DNA from: an uncultured virus (IMG/VR IMGVR_UViG_3300032270_000355)
Lineage: Duplodnaviria; Heunggongvirae; Uroviricota; Caudoviricetes
Length of the DNA stretch: 64,000 nt
Virus record (IMG/VR): IMGVR_UViG_3300032270_000355
Direction: 5' to 3' (one strand)
The position numbers and the translations under genes are program-made. The notes under the pieces are model-generated. The model ran no database searches. It worked only from the letters and a program-made list of their open reading frames with translations, and had not been told where the DNA came from. Numbering within the stretch: the first letter of the stretch is position 1; each line of letters begins with the position of its first letter. Of the stretch, positions 3,929 to 50,159 are shown in pieces.

Positions 3929-6096
3929 GCAACGTATCCCACGAACCGATTCAGGAGGACTCGGCTAGTTTGTTTTACATTGAGGAATTTGCTGAAGTTC
4001 CTTGCAATTGCCTTAGCGTTTGCATCTTCTTTCACTTCCAACTCACCCTCAACAATCTTCGTAGAAGACTGTGGGACTAAGAACAAGTCATCACGACCAG
4101 TGCCTTTGATTGAAGCGAATCCTTGATCACGAAACTCTTTTCTCCAAGTATCAATGATGTTGAATTCATTACCTGAAAAGACTGGTAAGTTTGAACGAAT
4201 CGCAGAACATAAATCACGACGAGCATTGCGGCAGATATAAAATCCGACAACCACACAGTTGTGACGATCTTTGATCATCTGAATAATCGTAGATGTTTGT
4301 TCATTAGAATTTTTATTCAGCTGATAAGTTTTCTGTGTTTTATCATCACGAATAAAGTATTTGTGTTTGATCTTTTTGTAACCACTAGTGGAATACACAT
4401 TCTCATGTTCTTCCATCCTACCATTAGGAGTATACAATGCACTACCTTCACCATCAGTTAAGGTAATGAGTGTCATCTTCTCGATAGCATTTTGTTTAGT
4501 GTAAGTTCCAAGATTATTGTAAACCCATACCAATGCTTCGTTCAATGGTGTTCCACCCATACTGTAACCATCATTCCAAAAGAATTTGTAGTTAGTTACA
4601 CGACGAGCCATCGTATGAAATTCGCTAGTAGTCATCTTGTTCGAGAACAATTCTAACAAAGAGAAATTACTATTCGTGTTGAGCATATTGTTTGTATTCA
4701 AATACTCATTGTGAATACGATTCCACTCACGTTGTTTATCATAATTTTCATTATAACGATCACCGTATTGAGAAGTGAAAGCAAGAACACGATATGGAAT
4801 TTGAATACGTGCACAGAACATTGCCAAGTTAATAACCTGTTCCAATGTATCTTTCATTACTTGATCCATTGAACCAGACCAATCCAGCAAGAAAAGCATA
4901 CCATGGTTTTTACCCTGTGGTACGACACTGACACGTTTGAACAAGTCATCATTTAGTTTGTAAGACCAGACACGTTTCATATCCAATGAACCAGTCTTGG
5001 AGACCTGAGCACGTTTGTACAGGGCTGCAGACTTACGCATCTCGAATTCTTTGACCAGATAATTCACGGCACGTGTAGAATCTGTTTTGAATTTATCATA
5101 CTTAGCACGATCCAATGCAAACTGATTGCGTTCATCAGCAGTCATTTCTTTGGTGTTACCCTGCTTGTCTTCTACATACCAGTTGTCAATAGTTTCATTC
5201 AGGATGGTTTTGTAACCAACAATAGGATCTTTGAAGTATTTGTCATCGAATTTAACATAGTTATATTGCGTGCTGTCATCAGCCAAGTCTTGCAATTTAT
5301 CAGCAAAATTTCGATCAGTCTTAGACTCAAGTTCTTCTTCAGAGATAGATGGCTCATCGTCAGACTTAGTGGATTTTCCACCATGGGTTTTACGACTGCT
5401 CTTTTCATCTTGATCTTCATCAGAATCTTCTTGTTCCCAATTGTCTTCATAGTCATCGATGTCATCAAATTCGCCTTCTGGCTCTTCGTCAGATTCTTCA
5501 AGTTCTTCTGGATCTTCGACAAAGACACGTTTCTTTTTTTCCTGTAGTTCTTCTTTCGAGAAGCCATAAATTTCTTTAGCCAATTCAACCACTTCATCAA
5601 TGGTCTCTGTGCGTTCAGCACGATTGACAAATAACTTTTCTTCAGGTGTGAATGTAACTCCACACTGGAATCCTGCTTTGAAATATAGATTGATTTTGTC
5701 GATGAGTAACAAGTCATCAAAATTCTGGACTTGTTTTACACCAAAGAAGTCACGATCATTGAGTTGTTTATATCCTTCGTTCATGCGTTTACGCAGTCCT
5801 GGATACTTACGTTTGATCATTTTCTCAATACGTACATCTTCGAGTACGTTGAGGTAAGTCATAATTTTGCGATCTTCTTGAATTGGAACCAAGTATTCGT
5901 CACCAGTATACAAGGCATGGCCAACTTCGTGACCAGTTAGCATATCTTCAATCTCTGGAGTCATATCTTTCCAGAGTGGTAAAGTCAACACACGTGCTTT
6001 GATGTCAAAAGATGCAGTGCGTGTTCTTGCACGAATCACTGAAAGATTCTCATTGGCAAGAAGGCGAGCAGAAAGATCAGATGCTTTGATGTCCAT
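3925..6096 (-). CDS. CobT-like protein: N-terminal metallopeptidase-like HEVGH domain, acidic linker, C-terminal VWA domain
   Basis: GHEVGHALYT and NVLEDVRIE; MIDAS LLDWSGSM, GGTPLNEA, ITLTDGEG; adjacent to the CobS-like ATPase; start at ATG 6096 after GGAGAA. Confidence 0.85.
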   Translation of the reverse strand: MDIKASDLSARLLANENLSVIRARTRTASFDIKARVLTLPLWKDMTPEIEDMLTGHEVGHALYTGDEYLVPIQEDRKIMTYLNVLEDVRIEKMIKRKYPGLRKRMNEGYKQLNDRDFFGVKQVQNFDDLLLIDKINLYFKAGFQCGVTFTPEEKLFVNRAERTETIDEVVELAKEIYGFSKEELQEKKKRVFVEDPEELEESDEEPEGEFDDIDDYEDNWEQEDSDEDQDEKSSRKTHGGKSTKSDDEPSISEEELESKTDRNFADKLQDLADDSTQYNYVKFDDKYFKDPIVGYKTILNETIDNWYVEDKQGNTKEMTADERNQFALDRAKYDKFKTDSTRAVNYLVKEFEMRKSAALYKRAQVSKTGSLDMKRVWSYKLNDDLFKRVSVVPQGKNHGMLFLLDWSGSMDQVMKDTLEQVINLAMFCARIQIPYRVLAFTSQYGDRYNENYDKQREWNRIHNEYLNTNNMLNTNSNFSLLELFSNKMTTSEFHTMARRVTNYKFFWNDGYSMGGTPLNEALVWVYNNLGTYTKQNAIEKMTLITLTDGEGSALYTPNGRMEEHENVYSTSGYKKIKHKYFIRDDKTQKTYQLNKNSNEQTSTIIQMIKDRHNCVVVGFYICRNARRDLCSAIRSNLPVFSGNEFNIIDTWRKEFRDQGFASIKGTGRDDLFLVPQSSTKIVEGELEVKEDANAKAIARNFSKFLNVKQTSRVLLNRFVGYVA

Positions 6097-36749: not shown

Positions 36750-37001
36750 TTAAAATTCGCCACCTTCTAAATTCTGCGCATCAAGCGTAGTAGAAGCAGT
36801 CCATTTATTTGTTGTTGTTCTGTATACTAAAAGCGATCCATTTAACTTACCATTCGTAGTAACATCGACATCGGCGATGTTTGACATAGATTCGACTACA
36901 GCTGGTGCAGCTAAGTTTGATTGTGAAAGTGTAAGAACACCTTCGGAAACTGCAACAGTTAACGCTTCATCTGGGGTAACAATTGCTATTGTATCTGCCA
37001 T
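36750..37001 (-). CDS. Small structural/fibre-associated protein
   Basis: IADVDVT...NGSLLVY...KW and a terminal EGGEF like the DGGTY end of the neighbouring fibre. Confidence 0.6.
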   Translation of the reverse strand: MADTIAIVTPDEALTVAVSEGVLTLSQSNLAAPAVVESMSNIADVDVTTNGKLNGSLLVYRTTTNKWTASTTLDAQNLEGGEF

Positions 37002-37003
37002 AA

Positions 37004-37339
37004 TTAAATTTGTGTAATTTGTGGGTTAACTGTGACAACTCCCTCGACTACTCTGGTTTTTGTACCAGATGGAGAAGTTATCTCTACGTCATAAAGCCAG
37101 CGTCCAGCTGGAATACTAGCAGATTGTACGTCTGTTAATTGAAGTCTAACCTTCCCAGAAGCTGCTAAGTATATACTTGATGTGAAATTATAGGATGTGC
37201 TGGACTGATATGACTTTCTCATTTGAGAAGCCACAGTATATCCAGTCAAATCGAGTGCTTGACCATTGGATGCGGATACAGTAATTATATTGCTGTAGTT
37301 AGCCCCAGCGTCAACGAATAGATTACTAACAGTCGCCAT
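37004..37339 (-). CDS. Small Ig-like virion protein (BppU-N/LtfC-like fibre adaptor, putative)
   Basis: NLFVDAGANY...DLTGYTVASQMRKSY...GRWLYDVEI...RVVEGVVTVNP, a pattern I recognise from T4-like phage structural ORFs. Confidence 0.7.
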   Translation of the reverse strand: MATVSNLFVDAGANYSNIITVSASNGQALDLTGYTVASQMRKSYQSSTSYNFTSSIYLAASGKVRLQLTDVQSASIPAGRWLYDVEITSPSGTKTRVVEGVVTVNPQITQI

Positions 37340-37368: not shown

Positions 37369-37376
37369 TATTTATA
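37369..37376 (-). promoter_or_regulatory. Late promoter, exact T4 consensus TATAAATA
   Basis: Intergenic, upstream of 37004-37339. Confidence 0.75.
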
Positions 37377-37401: not shown

Positions 37402-38445
37402 TTAGTCGATCAGAACATTATGGAAATCGTCTAGTAAAAACAGCCACTGAGGACGTTGGACGTTCATGTTTGATATTTTCTTTGATTTGTTTAAAGCATA
37501 ATCTCGTTCTCCGAATTCCTCGGACAGGATTTGCCTCATTTGCCAACGATGTGTATTGGAATTCCCACGAACTTTGGTGAAGGGTTCTTTAGTAGTCATA
37601 GCCCAGCGTTGGAGATCTTCAGAATCGAAAAACGCATGCATCTTTTTAGTCTTTTCTACCTGAAGCATTGTTCTATGTTCGTATAATCCAGTGTACCAGT
37701 CTAGATTAAAAATGCAATACCATCTCAAATCGGCGACTGTTTCAATTTTCCTATAAGAATTTTTTATCATTGGATCTAGAAATTGTAATAGTTTAGGATC
37801 TATGTTATTCTCATAAGATTCATGTATAGTTTCTGGAGTACCAAGAGTATGGTGGAACATGGCAGTTCCACCAGTTGCAAACATATCATCAGTTGGTCCA
37901 AATAACTGATTCCCACCCATGCCACTGACAAAAATACAATCATTTACATTGAATGAAAATTCATTATCTGTTGGTTCTAAGATAGTGTAAGGAAATTCAT
38001 TCTTCAATCTTCTATCAAACATATCACCAGATTCTACTATAGAATTTAATGTACCCCAAACTCTAACCTGATCGGGATCGTTGGAAAATTTCTTTAACAT
38101 GAATAAAACAAATGTACTATCAATTCCACCAGACCAAAGTACATGTACTACTTTATTAAGGCTTAGAAGGTACTTTGCACGTTCTTCACATACTTGATAA
38201 AATGATTTATTAAAAGAAATGCCCACCTCTGGTATTGGGTGAGCATCTTTTGCAATATTTAAATAATGCGGTATCTGTAGAGACCTATCAAACACCATAT
38301 TATGTTTGTTTAGTCCAAATTGTTCATACTGTTTAAACAACTCAGATGAATAATTTTCAGAAAGAAATGGTGAGATCGCTTGTGGATCTTTCTGGATTAA
38401 TTCTGGTACTTGTTTTTTATTATAATATAAAATTTGTGGTTTCAT
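37402..38445 (-). CDS. PP-loop ATP pyrophosphatase, asparagine-synthetase C-terminal-domain-like (no glutaminase domain)
   Basis: VLWSGGIDST PP-loop; FVSGMGGNQLFG (compare GxGGDELFG); AFFD, RWQMRQIL and KSK motifs late in the protein. Confidence 0.7.
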   Translation of the reverse strand: MKPQILYYNKKQVPELIQKDPQAISPFLSENYSSELFKQYEQFGLNKHNMVFDRSLQIPHYLNIAKDAHPIPEVGISFNKSFYQVCEERAKYLLSLNKVVHVLWSGGIDSTFVLFMLKKFSNDPDQVRVWGTLNSIVESGDMFDRRLKNEFPYTILEPTDNEFSFNVNDCIFVSGMGGNQLFGPTDDMFATGGTAMFHHTLGTPETIHESYENNIDPKLLQFLDPMIKNSYRKIETVADLRWYCIFNLDWYTGLYEHRTMLQVEKTKKMHAFFDSEDLQRWAMTTKEPFTKVRGNSNTHRWQMRQILSEEFGERDYALNKSKKISNMNVQRPQWLFLLDDFHNVLID

Positions 38446-38463
38446 AGTTCCTCACGTCAAAAT

Positions 38464-38504
38464 AAAAAGGGGATGACAAGCATCCCCTGTATAATGTATT
38501 TAGT
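38464..38504 (-). promoter_or_regulatory. Late promoter box ACTAAATA followed by a hairpin with T-run
   Basis: Box at 38497-38504; AGGGGATG-CTTGT-CATCCCCT-TTTT at 38464-38488. Confidence 0.55.
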
Positions 38505-38509
38505 TTAGA

Positions 38510-39457
38510 TTAATGAGACTTAATGCTCTTGACTAATCCATCACTAAAGGAAGCCTCAAATCTATCATGGAGAGGAGTCAATAGATCTTGCATCTTTTTC
38601 TGTTCAGATTTAGACATAGAGATAACTTCAACTTTTTCAGCTTTACATTGATCTAAAATATTTGGAATATCTGCAACAGATTCTTTACGTTCTGCCTTTG
38701 CTGCATTAAATGCTGCTTCAGACATGATCTGTTTAGTTTCATCGTCAAACTGATTGAAGAAAGCCTCATTGACAATGATAGAAGTCAAGAACAAACTGTG
38801 TGCAGTATCATTAACATACTTGAAAGATTTGTTTTGTTGTAGTGGGAAAATACGAACATAAGTTGATTCACCTGCATCGATGTTTCCACGATCGGCTTGT
38901 TCATTCATTTGTTCTAATTCGATATTAGGATTTGCAATTGCACCAAGTGTTTCGAAAGTTGCTTGGGCTACTGGGCTAGAACTAATTCTAACTTTTTTAC
39001 CCTTCCAAGATTCAATCGTATCTGCTTTAAAATTAGCAGGAACAACACGATATCCACCAGAATATGTAAATGCCATTGCTTTGATCTGAGAGTTTTTCTC
39101 AACGCCAGCTAACAAATCAGCACCGATTGGACCATCAAGAATAGCATCAGCATGATCGTGATCTCTAAACAAAAATGGTAAATCTAAAACATTAAGATCT
39201 GGATTAATATCTGCGAGCCAAGTTGTATAGATGTGACCCATCTCAACTTGTCCAGAACCAACTAAATCCATCATAGATCGTTTTGTTAGTTGTTTACCGA
39301 AGTTGTACTTTTGAGAATACTCAGTCAATGAGAGGATCTCAACATTAAATTTTCCATTAGTTCTCTCATTAACTTCTTTGGAAAATGCTTCGGCTACCTT
39401 CAAAAATAAACCAATAGGCTCATGAGCAATAACCCATTTTATATTTTTAACTGTCAT
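38510..39457 (-). CDS. TRAP transporter solute-binding protein (DctP family), no signal peptide
   Basis: FSKEVNERTNGKFNVEI, GQVEMG, VLDLPFLFRDHDHA, GKKVR, FETLGA, GNIDAGES, TAHS; GGAG SD before the ATG. Confidence 0.85.
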   Translation of the reverse strand: MTVKNIKWVIAHEPIGLFLKVAEAFSKEVNERTNGKFNVEILSLTEYSQKYNFGKQLTKRSMMDLVGSGQVEMGHIYTTWLADINPDLNVLDLPFLFRDHDHADAILDGPIGADLLAGVEKNSQIKAMAFTYSGGYRVVPANFKADTIESWKGKKVRISSSPVAQATFETLGAIANPNIELEQMNEQADRGNIDAGESTYVRIFPLQQNKSFKYVNDTAHSLFLTSIIVNEAFFNQFDDETKQIMSEAAFNAAKAERKESVADIPNILDQCKAEKVEVISMSKSEQKKMQDLLTPLHDRFEASFSDGLVKSIKSH

Positions 39458-39761
39458 TTTTTAGTTCTCCTAATTTGCTGGTATCAAAAGACCAGACTTG
39501 TGTTTGGTTCTGAAAATTTAAGGTTCTTTTCAAGAAAGCCACCTTATTATTTATAAGATCTGTAATTGTATTTAGGTCAATCTCATCTTTATTTATAACA
39601 GATTGTAGTGGTATTAGACTGTCTCTGTATCCATATTCTTTGGTATTACTATCAAATTCAAATACTTCTTTGACTGTATAGTGTTCAGTAGAACCATTAA
39701 ACCCTACAATTCGTGGAAACTGATTCATTTCTAACACATAACCTTTGAAGAAACTACTCAT
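39447..39761 (-). CDS. Hypothetical protein (104 aa)
   Basis: Overlaps both neighbours (ATGA with the radical SAM gene), consistent with operon membership. Confidence 0.65.
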   Translation of the reverse strand: MSSFFKGYVLEMNQFPRIVGFNGSTEHYTVKEVFEFDSNTKEYGYRDSLIPLQSVINKDEIDLNTITDLINNKVAFLKRTLNFQNQTQVWSFDTSKLGELKNDS

Positions 39762-41149
39762 GCTGCCACCGCTATAGGTATAATCTTTTTAGGTTTTCTA
39801 ACCTTTTCTGGTTTACCCTTAACCCACCAGAAAATGTCTTTACGATCTTCTCTTAGAGAACCTTCGATGTATTCAGGAATACAACCAGTCAACTCTTCAA
39901 TTGCGATACAGAATGGAACGATGTTATCACTGAATGCATTATCACAAGAGGCATCCCATAGTGGACCAGTTAAGAACATACATGCACCTTTGCAAATATG
40001 AATAACAGGACACTTTGGGCATTCTGTTCTATCAGACCAGTGAGTGGCTGAATCTAATCTAGATGAAGATAGATCAGATATATGTCCAAGTTTATGCGAT
40101 ATACCTGCGGGGTTTGTAGAAACTGGGCTAACATTCTGACATGTCAGAATATTGCCATTTAAGTCTAATGCTATATTATCTGACTTGTCCATACCACATT
40201 TCTGACCAAGAGATTCAATTCTAATACCACGGGACAGTGAATCGATAAATCCACCGACTTTCTGACCGATAACTCCAAACCTAGTCACTGTACCATTACG
40301 TAACTCTTCTAATGCTTTATTTCGATATAAAATATCTTCTTCACCATCTAGCAAAGAATTTGCTAACCCACCCTCATCATAAGCATCAACAAAAGCACCT
40401 TCGCCTATTGTTAAGAACTGTTTATATTTCTCACCGATTTCAGTGTCAACAAAATTGAAGAAGAATTTTTCAATTTCAGCACGACTAGTATTCTTAGAGT
40501 TAATCATAGAATTAAAACTAAACATACGTTTTGGTGCAAGTCTTTTATAAAGATCTATAATACCTTCTTTAGATTTTGGATCATCTAAAGGATCTGGTCC
40601 ACGAACTGATTGCCCTGGACCATCATGCGAAACAGCCACACCAAAATTATATCTTTCTAACCACTCATTTTTTTCTATGTCCAATAAACTACCATTTGTA
40701 ATTACTGACATGCGAGCATTTGGGTATTTTTTATTAAGTGCTTCTGCGAGAGGCTTCATTGTTTTCCAATAAACAAATGGTTCGCCACCCCAAAACTCAA
40801 AGTTTGTATCTTTACCAAATCCATCAGACCCACCTTCATACCATGAGTCCATATTCAATACAAATGGATCTACATCGTTTGGATTAGTTTCATCTGCATG
40901 TGGTACGAATCTTTGATTGCAATAATCGCACTCAAAGTTACATGAAAGACCCAGTTGAATCTTAACAGTTTTTAAATCTTTTTTACCATGCTCAATCTTT
41001 GCAGGAGAAACAACATCAGGTTGTGTTTGAACATCTGTAATAACATTGGATCCATCTTCCCATGTTAATGTGCTAAGAGAACTATTGTAAAATAATTTCT
41101 TAGTTATTTGGTCCTTTGGACTCCATGCTGAAATTTCAAAAGTTGACAT
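39758..41149 (-). CDS. Radical SAM enzyme with C-terminal SPASM domain
   Basis: CNFECDYC (CX3CX2C), FWGGEP, ITNGSLL, VSHDGP; SPASM CGMD...DLNGNILTC...CPKCPVIHICKGAC...C; GAGG SD before ATG 41149. Confidence 0.93.
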   Translation of the reverse strand: MSTFEISAWSPKDQITKKLFYNSSLSTLTWEDGSNVITDVQTQPDVVSPAKIEHGKKDLKTVKIQLGLSCNFECDYCNQRFVPHADETNPNDVDPFVLNMDSWYEGGSDGFGKDTNFEFWGGEPFVYWKTMKPLAEALNKKYPNARMSVITNGSLLDIEKNEWLERYNFGVAVSHDGPGQSVRGPDPLDDPKSKEGIIDLYKRLAPKRMFSFNSMINSKNTSRAEIEKFFFNFVDTEIGEKYKQFLTIGEGAFVDAYDEGGLANSLLDGEEDILYRNKALEELRNGTVTRFGVIGQKVGGFIDSLSRGIRIESLGQKCGMDKSDNIALDLNGNILTCQNVSPVSTNPAGISHKLGHISDLSSSRLDSATHWSDRTECPKCPVIHICKGACMFLTGPLWDASCDNAFSDNIVPFCIAIEELTGCIPEYIEGSLREDRKDIFWWVKGKPEKVRKPKKIIPIAVAA

Positions 41150-41168
41150 ACTATCCCTCAAAATAAAT

Positions 41169-41201
41169 TATCCTATCAGAGTATTTATCTCCGATAGGAT
41201 A
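41169..41201 (-). promoter_or_regulatory. Late promoter GATAAATA located in the loop of a 13-bp hairpin upstream of the radical SAM gene
   Basis: Minus strand TATCCTATCGGAG-ATAAATA-CTCTGATAGGATA, followed by ATTTATTTT. Confidence 0.65.
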
Positions 41202-41218
41202 TGTTCAAAATATAAATT

Positions 41219-42142
41219 TTATAATACTTTAGTGAATTCTGTTGCATTAGTCCAATATTTAAAACCAAGTTTAACTTTAACTACATCACCTGTATCCATA
41301 CCAGTTGTAACTACCTTAAAAGATCCAGCACCATTAGTTACTGGAATTTTTAGTTTCGGTAGATAACCTTGAGACTGAACCAAAAAAATGTTATTCATTT
41401 TTGAATCTGTTGTAAAATTAACTGTAACTATATCACCCGATACTGTTGAAGAAGTTACAGTTATTTTTGGAATAAGATAGTCTTTCACCAACATTACAAC
41501 AGGATCATCTGGATGTTTAGTTAAATTACCTGTAACAGTTACTCTATGATCACCTTGTGGTTTTGGTACCATACCAGTTAATGCCATTTCTGGTAAAATT
41601 GAATCATAATCAGGATCTGTACTAACTATAGGTCTAATAATTGCAACTATAATATCTTCAGCAGTTGGATTATCTTTAGTTGACCAAAATACTATTAAAG
41701 ATTGGTTTCCAAAAATAGTAAACTGTTTAGCTGGTAAAGTCAATGCTAGTGAATTTACTAAATTTTGTTTGGTGATAATTCGTTCATCTGCATCACCTGA
41801 CGTGTTTAGATTTTTTAAAACTTCTTCATCTTTAATATACCAAAGTGTGCATGCTTCAGCATCACTAAAATGTGCCATATCTATAGAAAAATTATTAATT
41901 ATTCTATTATTTTCAGTCACATTAATAAACTTAACCTTTAAGATATTATTAGTTAAATTCAAATCCCACTTAAAATCAAATGGTAATTCATCTGTAGTAT
42001 AAGAACTTCCATCTAAGGGACTAGTTGAAGTTGCAGTTTCTGGAGCCAGTTTCTGAACAGTTGGAGCGAAATGGTAGTCGATAGCATTAAGACTTGCGTC
42101 TGTATATCTACCTCTATGTTGTTTCTTTGTAATATATAACAT
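41219..42142 (-). CDS. Hypothetical protein, C-terminal beta-sandwich-like region
   Basis: 307 aa; C-terminal GYLPKLKIPVTNGAGSFKVVTTGMDTGDVVKVKLGFKYW; lies between the fibre and the radical SAM gene. Confidence 0.7.
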   Translation of the reverse strand: MLYITKKQHRGRYTDASLNAIDYHFAPTVQKLAPETATSTSPLDGSSYTTDELPFDFKWDLNLTNNILKVKFINVTENNRIINNFSIDMAHFSDAEACTLWYIKDEEVLKNLNTSGDADERIITKQNLVNSLALTLPAKQFTIFGNQSLIVFWSTKDNPTAEDIIVAIIRPIVSTDPDYDSILPEMALTGMVPKPQGDHRVTVTGNLTKHPDDPVVMLVKDYLIPKITVTSSTVSGDIVTVNFTTDSKMNNIFLVQSQGYLPKLKIPVTNGAGSFKVVTTGMDTGDVVKVKLGFKYWTNATEFTKVL

Positions 42143-42155
42143 TTAATAATTTTCC

Positions 42156-43367
42156 TTAGCAGTTACAATTGCAGTTGCTACAATTATAATTATGGTGGTG
42201 AGGATCAAAGTGATGGCTGTTATCTAAGTGCATGCGTTGTAGACAATTGATCGTATGCTGTCCGCAGTTACCTTGACTTGAGTGACCAGCATTACGACCC
42301 CAACTAGTTGCGATGTTGGGGTTAGCATGTTTAGTATTATGTGGAACCCAACCACCATAGTTACCTAAGTCATTGGCAAATTGAGATAAGTGGTGTGGAC
42401 GACCTTGAACCTGAGACCATGGAGTATACTGAGCATGGTGTGAGAACTGAGAAGTATGTGCAGCATGTGCGTTGCTGGTAGACGCAGAAGAACCAGCAAT
42501 ATTAGAAACAATAACCGCACCAGTATTACCCTGAACAGAAGTAACAGGAACTGAAACGATTACGTTACCTGTATTACCCTGAACAGACAATACGTTTGCG
42601 GAGATAGTTGGGTTACCAGAAACGCCATCGCCGTTAGAAACAGAGATACCTGAACCAGCTGCAATTGATCTATTAACAGCAGTACCAGCACCAGTACGAA
42701 TATAAAGTCCATTACCAGCAACACCTGCAAGTGCAGCTAAGTTTGCCGCATAAGCCTGAACATCAGAGCCAATCGTTAAACCAAGTGTACCACGAGCAGT
42801 AGATGCATCAGCGTCATCGATAAGAGTACGACCATATGCAGAAAGAGTTGTAGTAGAAGCAGTACCCGCACCAGTAAAGTAAGGTAGTGCATTTGCTGCA
42901 GAAGTGGTAGAAGCCAACGCAGCTAGTTCACCATCATAAGCCTGAACATCAGAGCCGATTGCCAAACCTAAGTTAGATCTAGCAGATGCAGCAGTAGTAG
43001 CACCAGTACCACCACCAGCGATAGCCACTGTATAATTCAAGCTGGAAGCGATAGTCGCTGTGCCAGTTAACGCTGCAGTAATAGTACCAGCGGAGAAGTT
43101 ACCAGAAGCGTCACGAACAACAACAGTAGATGCTGTATTTGCTGAAGCAGTAGTCAGTCCATCAAGCAAGTCAGCGTCTAGACCAGATCCAGCACCATCA
43201 ACAGTAATTAGTTTGGCTAGAACATCAGCTGCGGTATAGCTGGCTGCAGTTAAACCAGTCGCAATGGCTGTGTTTAAGTTATTAAAGTTATTATCGACTT
43301 CTGTATTCGTAAGAGGACTACCCTTAGTCGATCTTAGCGTAATAGATGCGGATGTAATATTTGGCAT
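42156..43367 (-). CDS. Tail-fibre-like protein with His-rich, Asn-Cys-repeat C-terminus
   Basis: N-anchor [18 protein letters not shown]; fibre motifs [39 protein letters not shown] x2, SVQGNTG x2; ends [14 protein letters not shown]. Confidence 0.8.
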
Positions 43368-43381
43368 TTAAGTTTCCTTAG

Positions 43382-43639
43382 TCAATCTTTTTTGTGCAAA
43401 AGCTGTAAAATAAGAGATTTTATGTCTTGCAGTTCGTTCTTCAATATATTTATGTCTTGCAGTTCGTTCTTCAATATATTTATGTCTTCTGTATGTTGAG
43501 AAATCTCTAACTCTCTCTGCTCAGCCATCTTTTTTCTGCTCATATAGGTTTCATATTCTGTTCTATTAGTATTTATAATGGCTCCAGTAGAGGTATCTCT
43601 AACTAAGCCATCATGTCCTTGAACTTTCAAATAATTCAT
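43382..43639 (-). CDS. Small coiled-coil protein typical of this position in T4-like phages
   Basis: MNYLKVQGHDGLVRDTSTGAIINTN...; real start most likely ATG 43639, just after the DUF4815 stop. Confidence 0.75.
   Translation of the reverse strand: MNYLKVQGHDGLVRDTSTGAIINTNRTEYETYMSRKKMAEQRELEISQHTEDINILKNELQDINILKNELQDIKSLILQLLHKKD
43419..43488. repeat. Perfect 30-bp tandem duplication (about 2.3 copies)
   Basis: TATGTCTTGCAGTTCGTTCTTCAATATATT at 43421 and 43451; encodes DINILKNELQ twice. Confidence 0.95.
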
Positions 43640-43640
43640 T

Positions 43641-46600
43641 TTATGCGCAGGCAATAACCCTAAAGTCTTTAATAATAGGAGTAGCAGAAGTATTAGCGGA
43701 CTGCATAACGATTTTAACTGCAATAGTATCGAATGGTGTCATATTGTTCATAGTATAGTCTACATCAGAGAATGCATAGTTTCCATTGTCGACTTTAATT
43801 ATCCCATTATTATCAGCGGAGGCTAGCGTATATCTAATAGTATCTAACTGTTTACTATCACCAAGACAAGTCTTATAGTAAACTTTGATATCAGCTTCAT
43901 TCGGGCAATTAACTCCAAGTTTAATTCTCACGAAACTAGAAGAATTTGCAAATTTAATAGGTGTTGTTACATACTTACTTAGCGAACTTCCTCCACGTGG
44001 GGCGATTTCATCGTAGAATAATTCTCTAACTGCAACATAGATTGCAGCAGAAGTCACTGTTTCTGCAGTGAATACAGTCCCAGAAACAGAATCTACATAA
44101 ACAGTTCCAGTAGTACCATTATCGCCATAACCAGTAACTATCCATGTTCCATTATTAGCTGAATTAGAAGAACCACCAGTAGTTAAGTATCTACCAATTC
44201 CCAAACCAGCCATTAATCCTCTAACAGTCGCATCAGTAGAAGTTATAGAAGATGCACTTCCAACCCACTGTAGAGTTGCTGTGCCATTTGTTGCCACACC
44301 ATATGTGTGGGTAGGTGCACTGACACTAGCAGTTCCTCCTACAGTACATAGGTAAAGTTTATTTCCATAATAGTACTGTGTTCCTTGAGTTAAGGATTGA
44401 GAGCCTGATAAAGTTAATAGAGTTCCAGTAATAGCATAGTTATATGATCCACCAGTAACTGCTACTGCCACACCACTATTTGGAACACCAGTAATAGTTC
44501 CAGCTGCTCCAGCAAACATTATTTTTGTATCTAAAGAAGCCACATTTGTATTAGATTCAGTAGGATAATTTAATTTATTTGAAACTAATACTGCACTAGA
44601 ACGAGCAGTATCGATAACAGGAGAAACTGCATTGTTTGTAGTAGAAATCTGACACAACAATTGTAGAGATTTTTCTCCACTCATATAAGTGTTTTCATTA
44701 ACCTCAGAAGCAACAACTCTTGTTTTGTCCCAAATGTTGTCAATATCAACTACAACTGGAGAATAAGAAGTATCTATAACATATGATGTTTGTGCTCCAT
44801 CAGGTGATGTTCCTGATGTTGTTTTCATAGAGAATTTTGCTAATGATTCACCGAAAGTTTGCATCTGCAAAGTTGGTTTAATTAAATCATATGCAATATT
44901 TCTAGAAGCCTTTAGTAAGTTACCACCAGAATAACCAGTAGAAGTAGCAACTGTACTAGTAGTTATTGTATAGCAATGAGCATCTACGTTAGCAATAACT
45001 TTAGTCGTATTAATTTCAGCGAATGGGATTCCATTAATATTAGAAGTCAATCCACTAAGTTGAACACTAGAACCAGAAGACATACCATGGTTAGGATGCC
45101 AAATTCTAATAACATTAGATCCAGTAACAGTTTGGATTGGGTTATTTTTCAATTGGTCATGAGGTAAAACATTATTCGTCATAACAATAGCACCAACCGT
45201 ATTTGTAGCAAATACAGCACGATGTATTGTAAATTTAATATCTTGATTTTGATCTGGTGTCCATGTAGAAGCATTCTGAGATTTGAACATTACACCAGCA
45301 TATGGTTGTTCAGAAATAGTTCTACTTGTTCCTGGGATGACATCACCCATATTAGAAATCCAAACTCTGTAATCATTTGAATCAGACTGAATAACAAATG
45401 CATACTCTTTACTGTCTTCTACGAAGACAGGAGATTCGAATGTGAATTTTGTTGCTGTGTTATAGTCTGCATAAGAATTACCATCAGGCAGAGCAACAGA
45501 TGTATATCCTGATGCTTCTGCAGTAGTTCCAGAAACAGGAGCATTAACCAAATCTGGATTTAAAGTTACACTACTGAATGGAAGAACCTGATGTGTTGGA
45601 TTACCGTTAACCATCTCACGAATATGAACAGTTACTGGAACATTTGCAGATTTAGTTGCAAAGAATAAATCAATACTTGTTAAGAATGCACCACCTCTTG
45701 ATTCTACATAAAATGATTGTGCAAGTGGATCTGTCCATGCTGGTGTTAAATCAGCAATAAGTCTGGTAGAAGTAGAACTACCACTTCTATTAACGACCTC
45801 ATAAGTATTAGGATCGCCAGCACGAGGATTAATCTGTTCTTGAACAATAGTAGAATTTCTAACAGCATTAACTATACCCTGAACAGTTTGAAGTGTTCCA
45901 GTGGCTTCATAAGTGCCGATTCCACGAGAAGTATAATTTCCTGTAGAAGTTGCAGAATCCATTAGTTTTAATGTAGACTTACCAGTACGGAAACGAACAG
46001 ATTCAGTATTTGGTATATTAAACAAGAAGTTTAATTCACCTGATTGATTTGTAGTTAATGTAGTATTAGTTGTTACCGAAACTACAGTTCCTGTTTGATT
46101 ACTAATAGATCCAGTAAATGTATTGCCTGAACTAAATGTTCCGATAATATTAACTAAATCAAGCGCATAAGATGTAGTACCATCATCATTATGTATTAAA
46201 TATTTACCAACAACTACTGCTGATGCAGAATTGTCTGATTTTGTTATTACGTCACCACGTGTTAAACAAACTTGTACGTCTGTACCGATTCTTCTTTTAA
46301 TGTCTGTGCTAGATCCACCGACATTAGTTGACGTATTCCAAAGTTTATGGTTTGCTGCTTTTAGACTTTCAGTAGAACCTGTTGGAGTATACACCAGTTT
46401 AGTAGTTGGAGTACAGTATGAATTTATATCAACTTCATTAAAATAAGCATAAAAGCGAGTAGATGGCTTTAATTGTTTGGATTGAACTAATACAAAACGT
46501 GATCGTACATAAGGAACGATAGAAGTTGATACTGTTCTATCACCAACTGACTCATAATCTGTTTTTGCTACTATAGAAGTTTTAGTACCATTTCTTGACT

Positions 46601-49600
46601 TAATACCAGTCTGAGACCATGAATCAGTAGTTCTTTCCAACAAAAAATTACCACTCATGTAGTTATTAGTAGTAACAGTATGTTGAGGAGTTCCAGACCA
46701 ATCTGTAGTCCATGCACCATAAATTGGCCAACCATTATTTAAATCTATCATATTCTTAAGAGAATTATAATTTCCCTCTACCTGCTGAACAAGATCAGGT
46801 ACTCTGTCAGTGTCAAACCAATCATCTGATGCTGGGGTTATCTGAACACTTCCTAAGAATGTATAGATGGCAAATGGATTAACATATTCTAATCTAGAAG
46901 CATATTCCTGTTTGATTAGAGGTGTAGTAGTATAAGGTAAAGTTATAATATCACCAGTTAGCTGATAATTAGCATTAGTTCTTGCAGATGTAGTAGAGGC
47001 TTGTTCGATTAAATCTACATTATGCATTGTGTGCGCTGGGCGCAGTAAGTTAGCCTTCATATCAATAGAACAGCTAAGATCAGAAGTTTTTGGATCAGCT
47101 ACAAGAGCACTGCTACCGAAGTTATCAACAACAAAACCATTCTTCATTCTATCCATACCATTACTATCTGGAATTTTTAAACTAGATGTTTCTGATTCCA
47201 ACAGAGATAATGATGTATAGTACTCTAAATTATTAATTCTATTTTCTAACTTACCGATGTCACGCATTGTGTAGCGTTTATTATCAACTTTTGAAACGCT
47301 CACATTAGTTGATGCAGTACCAAAAGTATATGGTTCTAGAGATAGATTATACAATACCATTCCAAGTGCTGGTGTTACTGGTTCTCCAGGAACAGTAGAT
47401 GGAACACCTTGTATATCAACTAATTTACCAGTTGGCTCTAAAATAATTTTATCTTTTCTAGCAAGATAGTAACTGTAATCTGCTTTGACATATTCACCAC
47501 GTTTTGGTATACAAGTCATAGAAGAGCCTGTGCTAGTAAAGTTCTTCACTCCACTGCCAGTTGTTTTATTAGCAACTCTTGGTCTAAAATCAATAGAGTC
47601 TCGTAGATTGGCAGGAATCTGTTTGTAATCGATACCACTATAAGAGTTAACATCAAAATAGTCACCAGCACCATGTTCAAAGTATTCATATACAACTTGA
47701 ACTGGATTAGATGGTTGAGTATAAGATGGTAGTAGATTTAATCTACCGTAATCATAATGTGTCAAACGCTGACCATTATCGAAAGAATATCTCTCTGAAA
47801 TATCTTGAGTATAAGATCCTGGAGTGCTACCAAAGGCAGTTCCTGGAGCCATCTTAATGCTTATGATTCTAAATATATCTGCTTTATCTAGAACGATTGA
47901 TGCTTGTTGAGCAGCAGTAGCAGTAATAAAAGATTCAGTGACTTGTGTTAGGGTTTTAGATTTTTCGAAACCAGATCCAGAACGAATAACTGCAGCAATT
48001 ACAGTATATGTTCCAGATGTCGGAACAGTGATACTTACGTTAGAAGTACCAGTACCACTAATATTAGATGATGTGATGTTCACAACAGATCCATCAGAAT
48101 CTTTAACTACAAGATAACTATCATTATCTGCAGCAGAAGCAAAGTTACCTGATGTATTTAATGCAAGAGTAGTAGTGGCAGTATTTACACTATTAAACTT
48201 AACATAAGCTGTATAGTTTAAATTGTTAACTCCACTATTGCCAGATGTTCTCATAGAACGAACAGAACTATATGCAAGAGGGAACACTAAATTATTTGCT
48301 ATGGCTTCTTGTAGAACAGTTGTTACTAGTTGATATTTTACACCAGTCACTGATGATATTGAGCTATCAACTGTTAAAGAATTTTGAGAATTAATGGCTG
48401 AGATTCTTCTATACAGAGAATCGTTAATAAGGATGTAATCACCAACCTTTAAATCTGTTAGGAATGAAGTCCCAACACCAGTTACAGTATTAGTTGCAAC
48501 TGCAGTAACTGAGCCAGTTAAATTAACTAATACTGGTTGTATGTCAGCTGTAAAAGAAGTTCCAGTACCACTACCAACAGTATAAAATGATTTTGCATTT
48601 CTATTAAAATCAAATCCAGACTTCATCTGAATATCCCATAGACCTAACTTATACTGTGAAGTAGATCCATAAGGAAGAATATTGTGCCACTCGATAAAAC
48701 GAGCACGTGCAGTTCCGATTAATTGTGCATTAGAAACTGTTGCCGCATTACCACGATTAGAAGAGCCAGTGATACCATCATAGATGTTAACTAATGTACC
48801 AGTATCGATAGTCGGTACATAATTTAAGTTAGTTACAATAACATAACTTCCAACAACTGGTGTTATTACAGAATCGATTGCCTGATCATAATCTCTAGCC
48901 TTTGGTACTGTTATGTATGCAGTAGCAGGATTTTCAAGTTCTGCTCCAGAAACATATGCTCTTCCAGCATCAATACCGATAGCAAGATCACCTTCATTAC
49001 CAGTTAATTTTATACCACGATTGTATACTGGATTTTCATCATATTGCCAGTTAACACCGCTATTACCTGCACCATCATATGCTGAGCCAGAAGTATGAGT
49101 TGGAGGAGTAGTTACTGAAGATGCGCTATTTTTAGCAGTATATGTATAACCGCCATATGTAACAATATCATTAATTAGATATGCAGTATTTTGAGTCCAT
49201 GCTCCACGATTATTATTACGTGATTCACGAACATCTACAGACCATCCATTAACAGTGTAGTCACCATTAGTATCGAATGTTCTTCTTTCCATCTCATTTT
49301 GAATCTGAGTATAGATTATATTATATGCAGTTTCTTTAACAATGGTATTAACAACACCACCAGTTACACGAATCAATTCTACGAAGTTCTGATCATCAGT
49401 TGAATCTAAAGATCTTTTAGATAGTGTTAAATCAATAAAGTAACGATGAGCACCTGGAGCAGCAAAGTTATAACTATTCTGCGCATTATCTAAAAGAGTT
49501 TCATCATCTTCTGCAGTAGTAATATTTTCTGATACATTCAATCCAACACGATATGATGGAGTTGCGCTATACTTATCAAGTGTAATTGATTGCGTATCAC

Positions 49601-50159
49601 AGAGAACGAAGTGGCCATTAATGTAATATACACCTCTCTCGATTGTAGCCAAAGATCCTTTACCTGTAGCTGCAGTTGCTTGTGCTTGAAAAGAAAAACC
49701 AGTATCAGTATTAAGTACTTCATTACCAGCAAAAACTTTTTGTGTAGGATCAGTTGCAGAATTTAAATAGCGAACATAAAGAGTTGTTGGATCTGTATCT
49801 TCTGCTCGTTGTGCCTTGATAACCTGCGCCTTTAATCCACTTGAACCTGTGATAACTAAACCTTGCAAAGAATCAATAAATGTAGCAACGGCTACACCAT
49901 TATACAATGCCTGTAGTTTAACATAATCAATACCTTTTGTAGTATTAGTAATAGTTTCAGCAGATACCTGTCCAGGTATAACCATAGCACCTTGTTTGAA
50001 AATATTATCGCCATGACGAGTAATCTGATTCTGAAGGATTGTCTGGAGTTGTGTTAGTTCACGTGCCTGAACAGCAAAAGAAGGGCGAAACAAAATTCGA
50101 TAGAATTTTTTTTCTTCATCGAAATCATCATTATACGGTTCGGTATTAAAATCTAGCAT
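43641..50159 (-). CDS. Very large baseplate/virion structural protein (DUF4815/VrlC-like)
   Basis: PYNDDFDEEKKFYRILFRPSFAVQARELTQLQ, APGAHR, RYTMRDIGKLENRINNLEYYTSLSLLE, KNGFVVDNF, DPLAQSF; 2172 aa. Confidence 0.85.
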   Translation of the reverse strand: MLDFNTEPYNDDFDEEKKFYRILFRPSFAVQARELTQLQTILQNQITRHGDNIFKQGAMVIPGQVSAETITNTTKGIDYVKLQALYNGVAVATFIDSLQGLVITGSSGLKAQVIKAQRAEDTDPTTLYVRYLNSATDPTQKVFAGNEVLNTDTGFSFQAQATAATGKGSLATIERGVYYINGHFVLCDTQSITLDKYSATPSYRVGLNVSENITTAEDDETLLDNAQNSYNFAAPGAHRYFIDLTLSKRSLDSTDDQNFVELIRVTGGVVNTIVKETAYNIIYTQIQNEMERRTFDTNGDYTVNGWSVDVRESRNNNRGAWTQNTAYLINDIVTYGGYTYTAKNSASSVTTPPTHTSGSAYDGAGNSGVNWQYDENPVYNRGIKLTGNEGDLAIGIDAGRAYVSGAELENPATAYITVPKARDYDQAIDSVITPVVGSYVIVTNLNYVPTIDTGTLVNIYDGITGSSNRGNAATVSNAQLIGTARARFIEWHNILPYGSTSQYKLGLWDIQMKSGFDFNRNAKSFYTVGSGTGTSFTADIQPVLVNLTGSVTAVATNTVTGVGTSFLTDLKVGDYILINDSLYRRISAINSQNSLTVDSSISSVTGVKYQLVTTVLQEAIANNLVFPLAYSSVRSMRTSGNSGVNNLNYTAYVKFNSVNTATTTLALNTSGNFASAADNDSYLVVKDSDGSVVNITSSNISGTGTSNVSITVPTSGTYTVIAAVIRSGSGFEKSKTLTQVTESFITATAAQQASIVLDKADIFRIISIKMAPGTAFGSTPGSYTQDISERYSFDNGQRLTHYDYGRLNLLPSYTQPSNPVQVVYEYFEHGAGDYFDVNSYSGIDYKQIPANLRDSIDFRPRVANKTTGSGVKNFTSTGSSMTCIPKRGEYVKADYSYYLARKDKIILEPTGKLVDIQGVPSTVPGEPVTPALGMVLYNLSLEPYTFGTASTNVSVSKVDNKRYTMRDIGKLENRINNLEYYTSLSLLESETSSLKIPDSNGMDRMKNGFVVDNFGSSALVADPKTSDLSCSIDMKANLLRPAHTMHNVDLIEQASTTSARTNANYQLTGDIITLPYTTTPLIKQEYASRLEYVNPFAIYTFLGSVQITPASDDWFDTDRVPDLVQQVEGNYNSLKNMIDLNNGWPIYGAWTTDWSGTPQHTVTTNNYMSGNFLLERTTDSWSQTGIKSRNGTKTSIVAKTDYESVGDRTVSTSIVPYVRSRFVLVQSKQLKPSTRFYAYFNEVDINSYCTPTTKLVYTPTGSTESLKAANHKLWNTSTNVGGSSTDIKRRIGTDVQVCLTRGDVITKSDNSASAVVVGKYLIHNDDGTTSYALDLVNIIGTFSSGNTFTGSISNQTGTVVSVTTNTTLTTNQSGELNFLFNIPNTESVRFRTGKSTLKLMDSATSTGNYTSRGIGTYEATGTLQTVQGIVNAVRNSTIVQEQINPRAGDPNTYEVVNRSGSSTSTRLIADLTPAWTDPLAQSFYVESRGGAFLTSIDLFFATKSANVPVTVHIREMVNGNPTHQVLPFSSVTLNPDLVNAPVSGTTAEASGYTSVALPDGNSYADYNTATKFTFESPVFVEDSKEYAFVIQSDSNDYRVWISNMGDVIPGTSRTISEQPYAGVMFKSQNASTWTPDQNQDIKFTIHRAVFATNTVGAIVMTNNVLPHDQLKNNPIQTVTGSNVIRIWHPNHGMSSGSSVQLSGLTSNINGIPFAEINTTKVIANVDAHCYTITTSTVATSTGYSGGNLLKASRNIAYDLIKPTLQMQTFGESLAKFSMKTTSGTSPDGAQTSYVIDTSYSPVVVDIDNIWDKTRVVASEVNENTYMSGEKSLQLLCQISTTNNAVSPVIDTARSSAVLVSNKLNYPTESNTNVASLDTKIMFAGAAGTITGVPNSGVAVAVTGGSYNYAITGTLLTLSGSQSLTQGTQYYYGNKLYLCTVGGTASVSAPTHTYGVATNGTATLQWVGSASSITSTDATVRGLMAGLGIGRYLTTGGSSNSANNGTWIVTGYGDNGTTGTVYVDSVSGTVFTAETVTSAAIYVAVRELFYDEIAPRGGSSLSKYVTTPIKFANSSSFVRIKLGVNCPNEADIKVYYKTCLGDSKQLDTIRYTLASADNNGIIKVDNGNYAFSDVDYTMNNMTPFDTIAVKIVMQSANTSATPIIKDFRVIACA

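Follow-up and report, generated by a model that had tools for sequence, protein, structure and literature searches.

The maturation of phage tail fibres is known to involve folding chaperones, self-cleaving chaperone domains and metal sites. In phage T4, whose fibre tips carry His-x-His metal sites, the gene that follows the fibre gene often encodes a tip-binding helper (gp37/gp38), and radical S-adenosylmethionine (rSAM) enzymes of the SPASM type, when encoded next to Cys-rich substrates, most often make thioethers. To our knowledge, the enzymatic, natural-product-type modification of a host-recognition fibre of the virion is not part of current phage biology. Here we describe a block of six genes in a 64,000-nucleotide stretch of DNA from an uncultured virus of the Caudoviricetes (IMG/VR IMGVR_UViG_3300032270_000355; this whole stretch is called the window), in which an rSAM/SPASM enzyme is encoded close to a tail fibre that ends in Asn-Cys pairs (the NC tail; Table 1). 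Because nearly all of the related phages and prophages examined have both the tail and the enzyme, these phages probably modify their fibre tips chemically.

The described systems that come closest are of several kinds. The streptococcal SPASM-type rSAM enzyme NxxcB, which belongs to a ribosomally made and post-translationally altered peptide (RiPP) system, joins a Cys sulfur of its substrate NxxcA to the beta-carbon of Asn, and is reported to accept Ala, Gln and Asp instead of Asn (PMC9389541). NxxcA is a short secreted peptide, whereas the phage substrate candidates are fibre-type virion proteins of 134-900 aa with no cleaved leader, and the phage motif consists of adjacent N-C pairs repeated up to the extreme C-terminus, although any NCNC run contains N-x-x-C; for this comparison we take the residues that mainly replace Asn before Cys in the phage tails to be Ala, Gln and Asp. 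Thioether formation on whole proteins has precedents in QhpC, modified by QhpD, and in CrpA, modified by CrpC, where the rSAM/SPASM gene is adjacent to that of a Cys-rich substrate, the Cys residues are concentrated C-terminally and the product is a protein (PMC13692751). As described there, both are cellular, QhpC being a subunit of an amine dehydrogenase and CrpA a methanogen protein with no known role, and both involve an interaction between a leader and a RiPP recognition element (RRE; PMC13692751), whereas the candidate phage substrate is a tail fibre and no RRE was recognised. Anaerobic sulfatase maturases (anSME) also take a full-length protein as substrate, but they make formylglycine by oxidising a single Cys or Ser of a sulfatase motif, whereas the phage tails hold 3-14 Cys in Asn-Cys pairs. 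As for T4, the 307-aa protein encoded after the window fibre resembles no family, and the Cys ladder with its dedicated rSAM has no T4 counterpart. A strict definition of RiPPs (short precursor, cleaved leader, released peptide) does not apply, since family searches revealed neither a leader peptidase nor an exporter in the block, and the only short substrate candidate is a 65-aa open reading frame (ORF) in Ralstonia jumbo phage RP12. We infer that the system is of the rSAM/SPASM protein-maturase type, with a virion fibre as the proposed substrate. A first-pass annotation of the window, made from the sequence alone, was not aware of any described system of this kind, and we likewise found no paper on the rSAM modification of a phage fibre among open-access papers and preprints; a 'radical SAM superfamily maturase' of cyanophage S-SCSM2R is listed as an antibiotic-synthesis gene in PMC12801897.

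The linkage between the enzyme and the tail was followed in both directions. A profile scan of viral contigs yielded 576 confirmed viral relatives of the rSAM, the best 80 of which formed the forward set, and 83 viral loci were compared; 174 relatives lie in bacterial genomes. A viral locus was considered evaluable if at least 2.5 kb were available upstream of the rSAM gene, and a tail was defined as a same-strand upstream ORF ending in (xC)>=3. Such an ORF lies upstream of the rSAM in 59 of the 71 evaluable viral loci, while four others carry an interrupted tail, three a form with a Hint domain and two a fibre located about 5.3 kb upstream; among the other six-frame ORF segments, 4 of 2062 have such a tail, and two of these are the distant fibres. 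The bacterial-genome loci, mostly from Burkholderiales and Alphaproteobacteria, are probably prophages as judged from their gene content (in L093, lysis genes follow the rSAM), and here the tail precedes the rSAM in 56 of 64 evaluable loci, plus three variants, against 2 of 2686 control segments. A chance, low-complexity origin of the tail is ruled out by these two sets of controls. In the opposite direction, a DNA pattern for NCNCNC followed by a stop codon gave 79 analysable loci, in 42 of which it closes an ORF segment of 90 aa or more; the rSAM is found 32-3281 nt downstream in 31 of the 35 evaluable cases, and downstream of none of the 37 short or out-of-frame matches. The first-pass annotation had proposed that rSAM homologues occurring mostly without an adjacent Cys-rich fibre would speak against the system, and the pairing has held both ways; an adjacent Cys-rich substrate gene, as expected of a maturase, is thus present.

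Around these two elements, almost everything else changes. The fibre bodies are unrelated across clades (the window fibre matches 33 of the 83 loci, that of Achromobacter phage JWF 32 and that of Ralstonia phage RSP15 two), the distance from tail to rSAM ranges from 32 to 5350 nt, and the genes in between vary: most loci carry a homologue of the 307-aa protein or of its relative in RSP15, and a few the unrelated gp029 family of JWF, while a 205-aa family is found in 49 of 163 loci, proteins similar to RSP15 ORF046 in eight, and desaturase-like proteins in two to four. Since fibre bodies, spacing and intervening genes all differ, mere synteny by descent is ruled out, and the constant elements are the free Asn-Cys tail and this rSAM. 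The pairing spans different phage types, namely the T4-like window, RSP15 (filed under Ackermannviridae) and the phages JWF and 2-1 (lambda-type tail genes), and extends to apparent prophages of Burkholderiales and Alphaproteobacteria. Judging from these genomes, the core of the system is an NC-tailed protein plus the rSAM, usually with a member of the 307-aa family, and the idea of six genes acting as one system, put forward in the first-pass annotation, does not survive the comparison, as genes 4-6 occur only in part of the marine T4-like clade.

The window fibre shows tail-fibre and structural matches in PHROGs (phrog_697, E 6e-19; phrog_24210, E 2.5e-13), and its gene has short DNA matches to cyanophage structural genes. 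It contains exactly six Cys (368, 375, 396, 399, 401 and 403), each preceded by Asn, and all 16 of its His lie in the last 110 residues, with none in the first 293. The NC tail is kept in 16 aligned relatives of this fibre and in 99 non-redundant tails, which hold 3-14 Cys within their last 60 residues; Asn precedes 567 of the 783 Cys in these tails (72%), Asp 7% and Ala 6%, and the residues other than Asn at this position are mostly Asp, Ala and Cys. The His-rich, Asn-Cys-repeat tip noted earlier is therefore present in the window fibre, but its richness in His is specific to the clade and is no trait of the family, as seen in the 16 aligned relatives. The repeat is placed either at the extreme C-terminus or with a Hint domain directly after it. 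The RSP15 fibre terminates in an NC-QC run, and the JWF fibre carries an NC/DC run immediately before a Hint domain (PF05203, E 3e-12, residues 308-344, in Pfam), the profile beginning at the Cys directly after the repeat; the same junction is seen in L003, L063, L092, L127 and L155. Hint-type tails were found in these five loci and in L002, and none is present in the window fibre. Hint domains cut themselves off, and such self-cleavage would expose the repeat as the C-terminus in JWF-type fibres.

Two further forms of the tail were observed. In a Paraburkholderia genome (L141, about 5760-5990, plus strand), the segment immediately upstream of the rSAM, NC-rich and 157 aa long, finishes with an acidic Gly/Asp run in place of a terminal Cys. 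In phage RP12, the unannotated 65-aa ORF (L164, 948-1145, plus strand) shows an HxH element plus, near its C-terminus, an NC-NC-NC-AC run. The stop of this ORF and the start of ORF075 overlap, and three clustered rSAM genes lie just downstream, among them one for a homologue 22.7% identical to the window rSAM. With the RP12 locus, the pairing may reach as far as very distant homologues and a substrate of peptide size.

The enzyme belongs to the radical SAM superfamily and, within it, to the SPASM subfamily. Its CxxxCxxC motif (C74/C78/C81) is invariant in four aligned homologues, as are the predicted cluster ligands of the SPASM domain (C322, C341, C381, C384, C390, C394 and C406), the seven-Cys motif typical of two auxiliary 4Fe-4S clusters; TIGR04085 reaches 32.1 bits over residues 322-396 (cut-off 27), PF04055 barely exceeds its own (29.7 against 29.5 bits), and phrog_1802 matches with E 1.9e-62. 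The ATG at 41149 is most likely the true start, because it is preceded by GAGG and the relatives are 462-463 aa long. Homologues 42-47% identical are found in RSP15, JWF and 2-1, where the rSAM gene follows the fibre gene and one or two genes of unknown function. The family comprises at least 2651 clusters (90% identity) at E <= 1e-20, and the 120 best relatives listed are all unnamed or 'uncharacterized protein'. The closest curated families are Cys-thioether maturases and anSME (PapB, nif11-type, QhpD and geopeptide enzymes), and the nearest solved chains are CteB (5wgg) and anSME (4k37); the best PDB sequence match, 8VPO, is cited in a paper on rSAM cyclopropyl synthases. An rSAM of the Campylobacter CP220 type, 29% identical over the core, lies in a nucleotide/sugar context without an NC tail and was placed outside the system.

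We propose that these genes form a phage-encoded protein-maturation module for the virion fibre, in which the rSAM would build a ladder of thioethers on the tail, and we assign this reading a probability of roughly 0.55. Late in infection, the fibre and its 307-aa partner would be made from the structural operon, with a hairpin and T-run cutting read-through into the enzyme genes, and the rSAM/SPASM enzyme would work on the free Asn-Cys tail of the fibre. Most likely, an acceptor residue (Asn, in some cases Asp or Ala) would lose a hydrogen to the enzyme and a Cys sulfur would be joined to the carbon concerned, the product being a ladder of non-reducible thioether (ranthionine/sactionine) bridges that would stiffen or lock the fibre tip. 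The thioether ladder is favoured because the acceptor range of NxxcB resembles the residues found before Cys in the tails, and because QhpD and CrpC provide a precedent on whole proteins.

Several observations weigh against this proposal. As regards the linkage, 3 of 71 viral and 5 of 64 bacterial-genome rSAM loci have no NC tail, and 4 of 35 NC-ended ORFs (in L180, L239, L183 and L227, all 185-203 aa long and ending in NCNCNC) have no rSAM homologue within 6 kb downstream; besides, 10 of the 31 positives of the reverse search are on contigs also present in the forward set, and the counts are not independent events, because many loci are related. As regards the enzyme, it scores far under the cut-off of every characterised maturase (PapB NF047865, 50.5 bits against 340; QhpD TIGR03906, 41.6 against 453; anSME TIGR03942, 39.7 against 349.45; SCIFF TIGR03974, 29.8 against 425; CrpC-type TIGR04463, 26.2 against 525), so that its chemistry cannot be read from homology. 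The matches to thioether-maturase families span mostly the N-terminal core, and the only full-length alignments, covering core and SPASM domain, involve anSME, whose reaction on Cys is an oxidation without cross-linking (residues 70-394 on positions 7-324 of the 363 in TIGR03942, and 70-386 on 14-333 of 4k37). Pfam and NCBIfam searches of the rSAM, in which about 70 residues precede the cluster motif, returned no RRE or PqqD family. The adjacent N-C spacing is unlike that of the studied NxxC, CxxxD and CxxQ/D motifs, and the tie of genes 4-6 to the fibre is one of gene linkage only, because close relatives whose tails are similar (L019, L082) lack them.

The 307-aa partner protein, which has no Pfam, NCBIfam or PHROG family match, is predicted to consist of two domains (AF2 model, pLDDT 83.7). 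In the model, its C-terminal domain resembles the intimin/invasin-like immunoglobulin (Ig) domain of intimin (1f02_I; VIA Z 9.0, root mean square deviation 2.4 over 79 residues), and across the family this domain is almost free of gaps, with a mean pairwise identity of 32%, against 15% identity and 27% gaps for the N-terminal domain. For the latter, Foldseek gave no PDB match at E <= 1e-3, Atlas matches were below 0.8 and the wide VIA list was filled by the Ig domain. A weak match to the colicin-Z C-terminal family of NCBIfam (19.7 bits against 50) covers the Ig-like domain and was disregarded. The window protein matches 46 of the 83 viral loci and its RSP15 relative, ORF047, 36. From its position and predicted fold, we infer that it is a tip-associated structural or helper protein, which would dock via the conserved Ig-like domain. 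The family is dispensable: no member is encoded between tail and rSAM in L181, L188, L199, L219 and L222, each with an NC-tailed ORF of 134 aa, or in L179, where this ORF has 176 aa, and the rSAM lies 76 or 32 nt downstream, in what appears as the minimal, two-gene form of the module.

In other clades, the same slot is occupied by other accessory genes. The 205-aa family lies directly upstream of the rSAM in L093 (5400-6017) and in 48 other, mainly betaproteobacterial prophage-like loci, and an H-x-D ... H pattern is visible in its sequence; neither this family nor the RSP15 ORF046-like, 240-aa and 233-aa accessory proteins have a Pfam, NCBIfam or PDB match. We would hazard, from the HxD...H patterns, that some of these accessory proteins are iron/2-oxoglutarate-dependent (Fe/2OG) oxygenases. 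In L020 (1591-5352), and also in L022, L031 and L038, five extra genes are inserted between the NC-tailed fibre and partner genes and the rSAM; two of them encode membrane proteins with His boxes and weak matches to DesA desaturases (E 2.4e-11 and 0.004, far under the cut-off).

In the window, the rSAM gene is followed by a trio of genes (4-6) encoding a 104-aa, a DctP-like and a PP-loop protein. For the first, nothing meaningful was found in Pfam (E <= 10), NCBIfam, PHROGs, a PDB profile search or Atlas, nor was a PqqD/RRE family found in the Pfam and NCBIfam searches. The second matches its family over the full length (PF03480, 156 bits against 23.4, E 1.6e-45; NF037995, 116 against 50; TIGR00787, 121.5, under the cut-off of 175). 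In contrast to the tripartite ATP-independent periplasmic (TRAP) transport proteins of the DctP family, however, it is encoded in a virion module, with no DctQ/DctM membrane-subunit family among the 33 window ORFs scanned against PHROGs, and there is no room for the signal peptide of a periplasmic protein, because the ORF starts at about the same point as the solved chain 4pdh (residue 23 aligns with residue 21 of the latter) and no longer ORF is listed. The third contains an invariant WSGGxDST sequence (SGGxDS motif) and, beyond this motif, has no Pfam, NCBIfam or PDB sequence match. In its AF2 model (pLDDT 84.4), the top 12 fold matches in VIA all belong to the class of asparagine synthetase (AsnB) and beta-lactam synthetase (Z 11.8-13.8 over 186-255 residues; 1mbz_A, Z 13.8, deviation 3.4 over 197 aligned residues; 9b6c_B, Z 13.3; 1ct9_B, Z 12.5), including beta-lactam synthetase, asparagine synthetases, TsnB9 and carbapenam synthetase, while GMP synthetase and LarE reach only Z of about 10. 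The identities first proposed for the rSAM/SPASM, DctP-like and AsnB-like PP-loop genes are thus borne out by TIGR04085, PF03480 and these fold matches, respectively. The AsnB class, to which lasso cyclases also belong, adenylates a carboxylate and forms an amide; the phage protein shares its PP-loop and synthetase fold but has no N-terminal glutaminase domain, the alignments beginning near target residue 142, and no lasso precursor or leader peptidase was seen nearby.

The genes of the trio are restricted to part of the marine T4-like clade: the 104-aa gene is found in 14 of the 83 viral loci, always with the DctP-like gene alongside, the latter likewise in 14, and the PP-loop gene in 17. All three are present in 13 related loci, counting L047, whose contig ends before the PP-loop gene; L004 and L012 have the PP-loop gene only, and L019, L079 and L082 none. 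By this distribution, the trio is a clade-specific accessory. It might even be an unrelated auxiliary set that occupies a variable slot of the structural module and takes no part in fibre maturation, which we consider rather unlikely. It is absent from relatives that keep fibre, partner and rSAM (in L019, L079 and L082, the rSAM gene is followed by the next structural genes), a terminator-like hairpin splits the DctP-like from the PP-loop gene, and neither of these two families matched any viral or bacterial-genome locus outside the marine clade. However, the 104-aa gene overlaps both the rSAM and the DctP-like genes, and the set moves with the rSAM, the block being upstream in L014 and the PP-loop gene upstream in L012 and paired with rSAMs of 51-52% identity in L051 and L052; moreover, a DctP-like protein with no signal peptide cannot serve uptake, the PP-loop family is found almost only on phage-sized contigs, with no cellular name, and all the genes lie among late virion genes. 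The overlapping reading frames and the joint relocation in L012 and L014 are our reasons for assigning the trio to the pathway.

By analogy, an AsnB-type enzyme with no glutaminase domain and a cytoplasmic carboxylate binder suggest ATP-dependent carboxylate activation. In the marine T4-like clade, an optional last step would then follow the cross-linking, in which the AsnB-type enzyme activates a carboxylate with the assistance of the DctP-type binder and the 104-aa protein; the terminal carboxylate of the tail is the simplest candidate for its target, though a speculative one. A broader view, which we advance tentatively, is that phages of several morphotypes build a non-proteinogenic structure into the virion, consisting of an rSAM-made thioether ladder with lineage-specific tailoring, by the AsnB-type and DctP-type proteins here and by the 205-aa family, desaturase-like proteins or Hint domains elsewhere. 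This would amount to a modular pathway in the style of RiPPs, whose product is the part of the fibre that probably contacts the host.

Since the only end-to-end alignments of the rSAM are to anSME, a modification of the tail Cys with no cross-linking (formylglycine formation of the anSME type, or oxidative processing of C-terminal Cys), leaving a reactive, unstapled tip, stays alive as an alternative, albeit an improbable one. Like the anSME, the enzyme would act on a full-size protein, no RRE was recognised, and the strict free C-terminus would suit a chemistry of terminal residues. Yet the anSME model reaches a mere 39.7 bits of the 349 required, the sulfatase motif that surrounds the target Cys is absent from the tails, and the window ORFs scanned yielded no sulfatase family. 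Instead, the predominance of Asn, replaced mainly by Asp and Ala, matches a known spectrum of thioether acceptors (PMC9389541).

A metal or iron-sulfur site formed by the Asn-Cys tail where the fibre tip has its trimer axis, analogous to the His-x-His sites of T4, with the rSAM aiding assembly in some other way or acting on, for example, the 307-aa protein, would fit the C-x-C runs (classic metal-thiolate motifs), the His-rich stretch that precedes the window tail and the HxH element ahead of the NC run in RP12, but is very doubtful, as such a site needs no dedicated rSAM while one is found with the tail in 31 of 35 cases, the richness in His is no conserved feature of the family, and the 307-aa protein has one Cys only and does not occur with every rSAM-tail pair. 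Binding of metal does not preclude cross-linking, and Dieter et al. suggest metal binding by modified CrpA (PMC13692751).

If the thioether ladder were confirmed, it would be a third, far more abundant case of whole-protein rSAM thioether chemistry, after QhpC and CrpA, and would explain a conserved oddity of many fibre genes. It would also matter for the engineering of receptor-binding proteins, because heterologous expression without the enzyme would yield immature fibres, and the cultured Achromobacter phages would offer a clean genetic system for studying such enzymes.

The expression signals of the block are compatible with its late use. Of the three gp55-type late-promoter boxes first placed at 43570, 41182 and 38497, the one at 43570 is a full TATAAATA, whereas those at 41182, which reads GATAAATA, and at 38497 (CTAAATA) are partial and each is accompanied by a hairpin and a T-run. 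A second full TATAAATA lies at 37374, before the gene that follows the block. ATAAATA is not enriched overall in the window (16 found against 24 expected), and 15 of the 16 are on the coding strand. The element at 41169-41201 is a probable attenuator or terminator combined with a late-promoter box; a hairpin with T-run, built from other stem sequences, is found at the same junction of the 307-aa and rSAM genes in 12 of 15 related loci, and the box-plus-hairpin layout of the DctP/PP-loop junction recurs with different stems in 11 of 11. Such a layout fits a high expression of the structural genes and an attenuated late expression of the enzymes.

Table 1. Features of the proposed fibre-maturation block in the window (strand as given; positions refer to the whole stretch)
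Feature	Position	Strand	Remarks
T4-type late-promoter-like box TATAAATA	43570..43577	-	208 nt upstream of the fibre start, inside ORF 43382-43723; consensus match only
Tail-fibre-type protein, 403 aa, candidate substrate	42156..43367	-	PHROG tail-fibre/structural matches
Cys-bearing tip, residues 368-403	42159..42266	-	Six Asn-Cys pairs, ending NC-S-NC-NC-NC at the free C-terminus; proposed modification site
307-aa partner protein	41219..42142	-	Variable N-terminal domain 1-223; conserved bacterial-Ig-like C-terminal domain 224-307
13-bp hairpin and T-run between the 307-aa and rSAM genes	41169..41201	-	GATAAATA in the loop
Radical SAM/SPASM enzyme	39758..41161	-	Listed from TTG 41161; probable start ATG 41149, giving 463 aa
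104-aa protein, unknown fold, accessory	39447..39761	-	4-nt overlap with the rSAM stop, 11-nt overlap with the DctP start
DctP-family (TRAP-type) solute-binding protein, accessory	38510..39457	-	PF03480; no signal peptide
CTAAATA box (38497), then 8-bp GC hairpin and T-run	38468..38502	-	DctP/PP-loop junction
PP-loop ATP pyrophosphatase, asparagine-synthetase/beta-lactam-synthetase fold, accessory	37402..38445	-	347 aa

The scan of the window ORFs against PHROGs identifies the stretch as the virion module of a T4-like myovirus. Baseplate genes of the gp48, gp5, gp25, gp6 and gp7 types lie on one flank of the block (tail-tube cap, hub/lysozyme and wedge genes at 50-64 kb), and genes for fibres, neck, terminase, sheath, tube, portal, protease, scaffold and capsid on the other, below 37 kb. 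The major capsid protein shares about 65% identity with its counterparts in Methylophilales phage Melnitz and in cyanophages such as P-TIM40, which points to a marine-type T4-like phage. As the first-pass annotation had it, six co-oriented genes stand between baseplate and fibre genes; all six ORFs are present on the minus strand, between a 2172-aa phrog_358 protein and the next fibres, and the late-type placement that it proposed agrees with their location among late virion genes.

Beyond the PP-loop gene come those of a 111-aa protein (37004-37339, minus strand; phrog_1084, and also phrog_3304, 'L-shaped tail fiber protein assembly') and of an 83-aa protein (36750-37001, minus strand). In the trio-less relatives L019, L079 and L082, these two genes directly follow the rSAM, so that the trio looks like an insertion between the rSAM and this gene pair. 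On the other side, the module adjoins the gene of the 2172-aa virion-type protein (43641-50159, minus strand), a relative of which, 31% identical, is encoded beside the rSAM in RSP15 (L001, 9301-14235), on the opposite side of the module. At its end, the 2172-aa gene is overlapped by a small ORF (43382-43723, minus strand), which probably starts at an internal Met immediately past the stop of that gene; this ORF has a direct repeat of 10 residues in a coiled-coil-like tail, and three late-box-like heptamers lie inside it.

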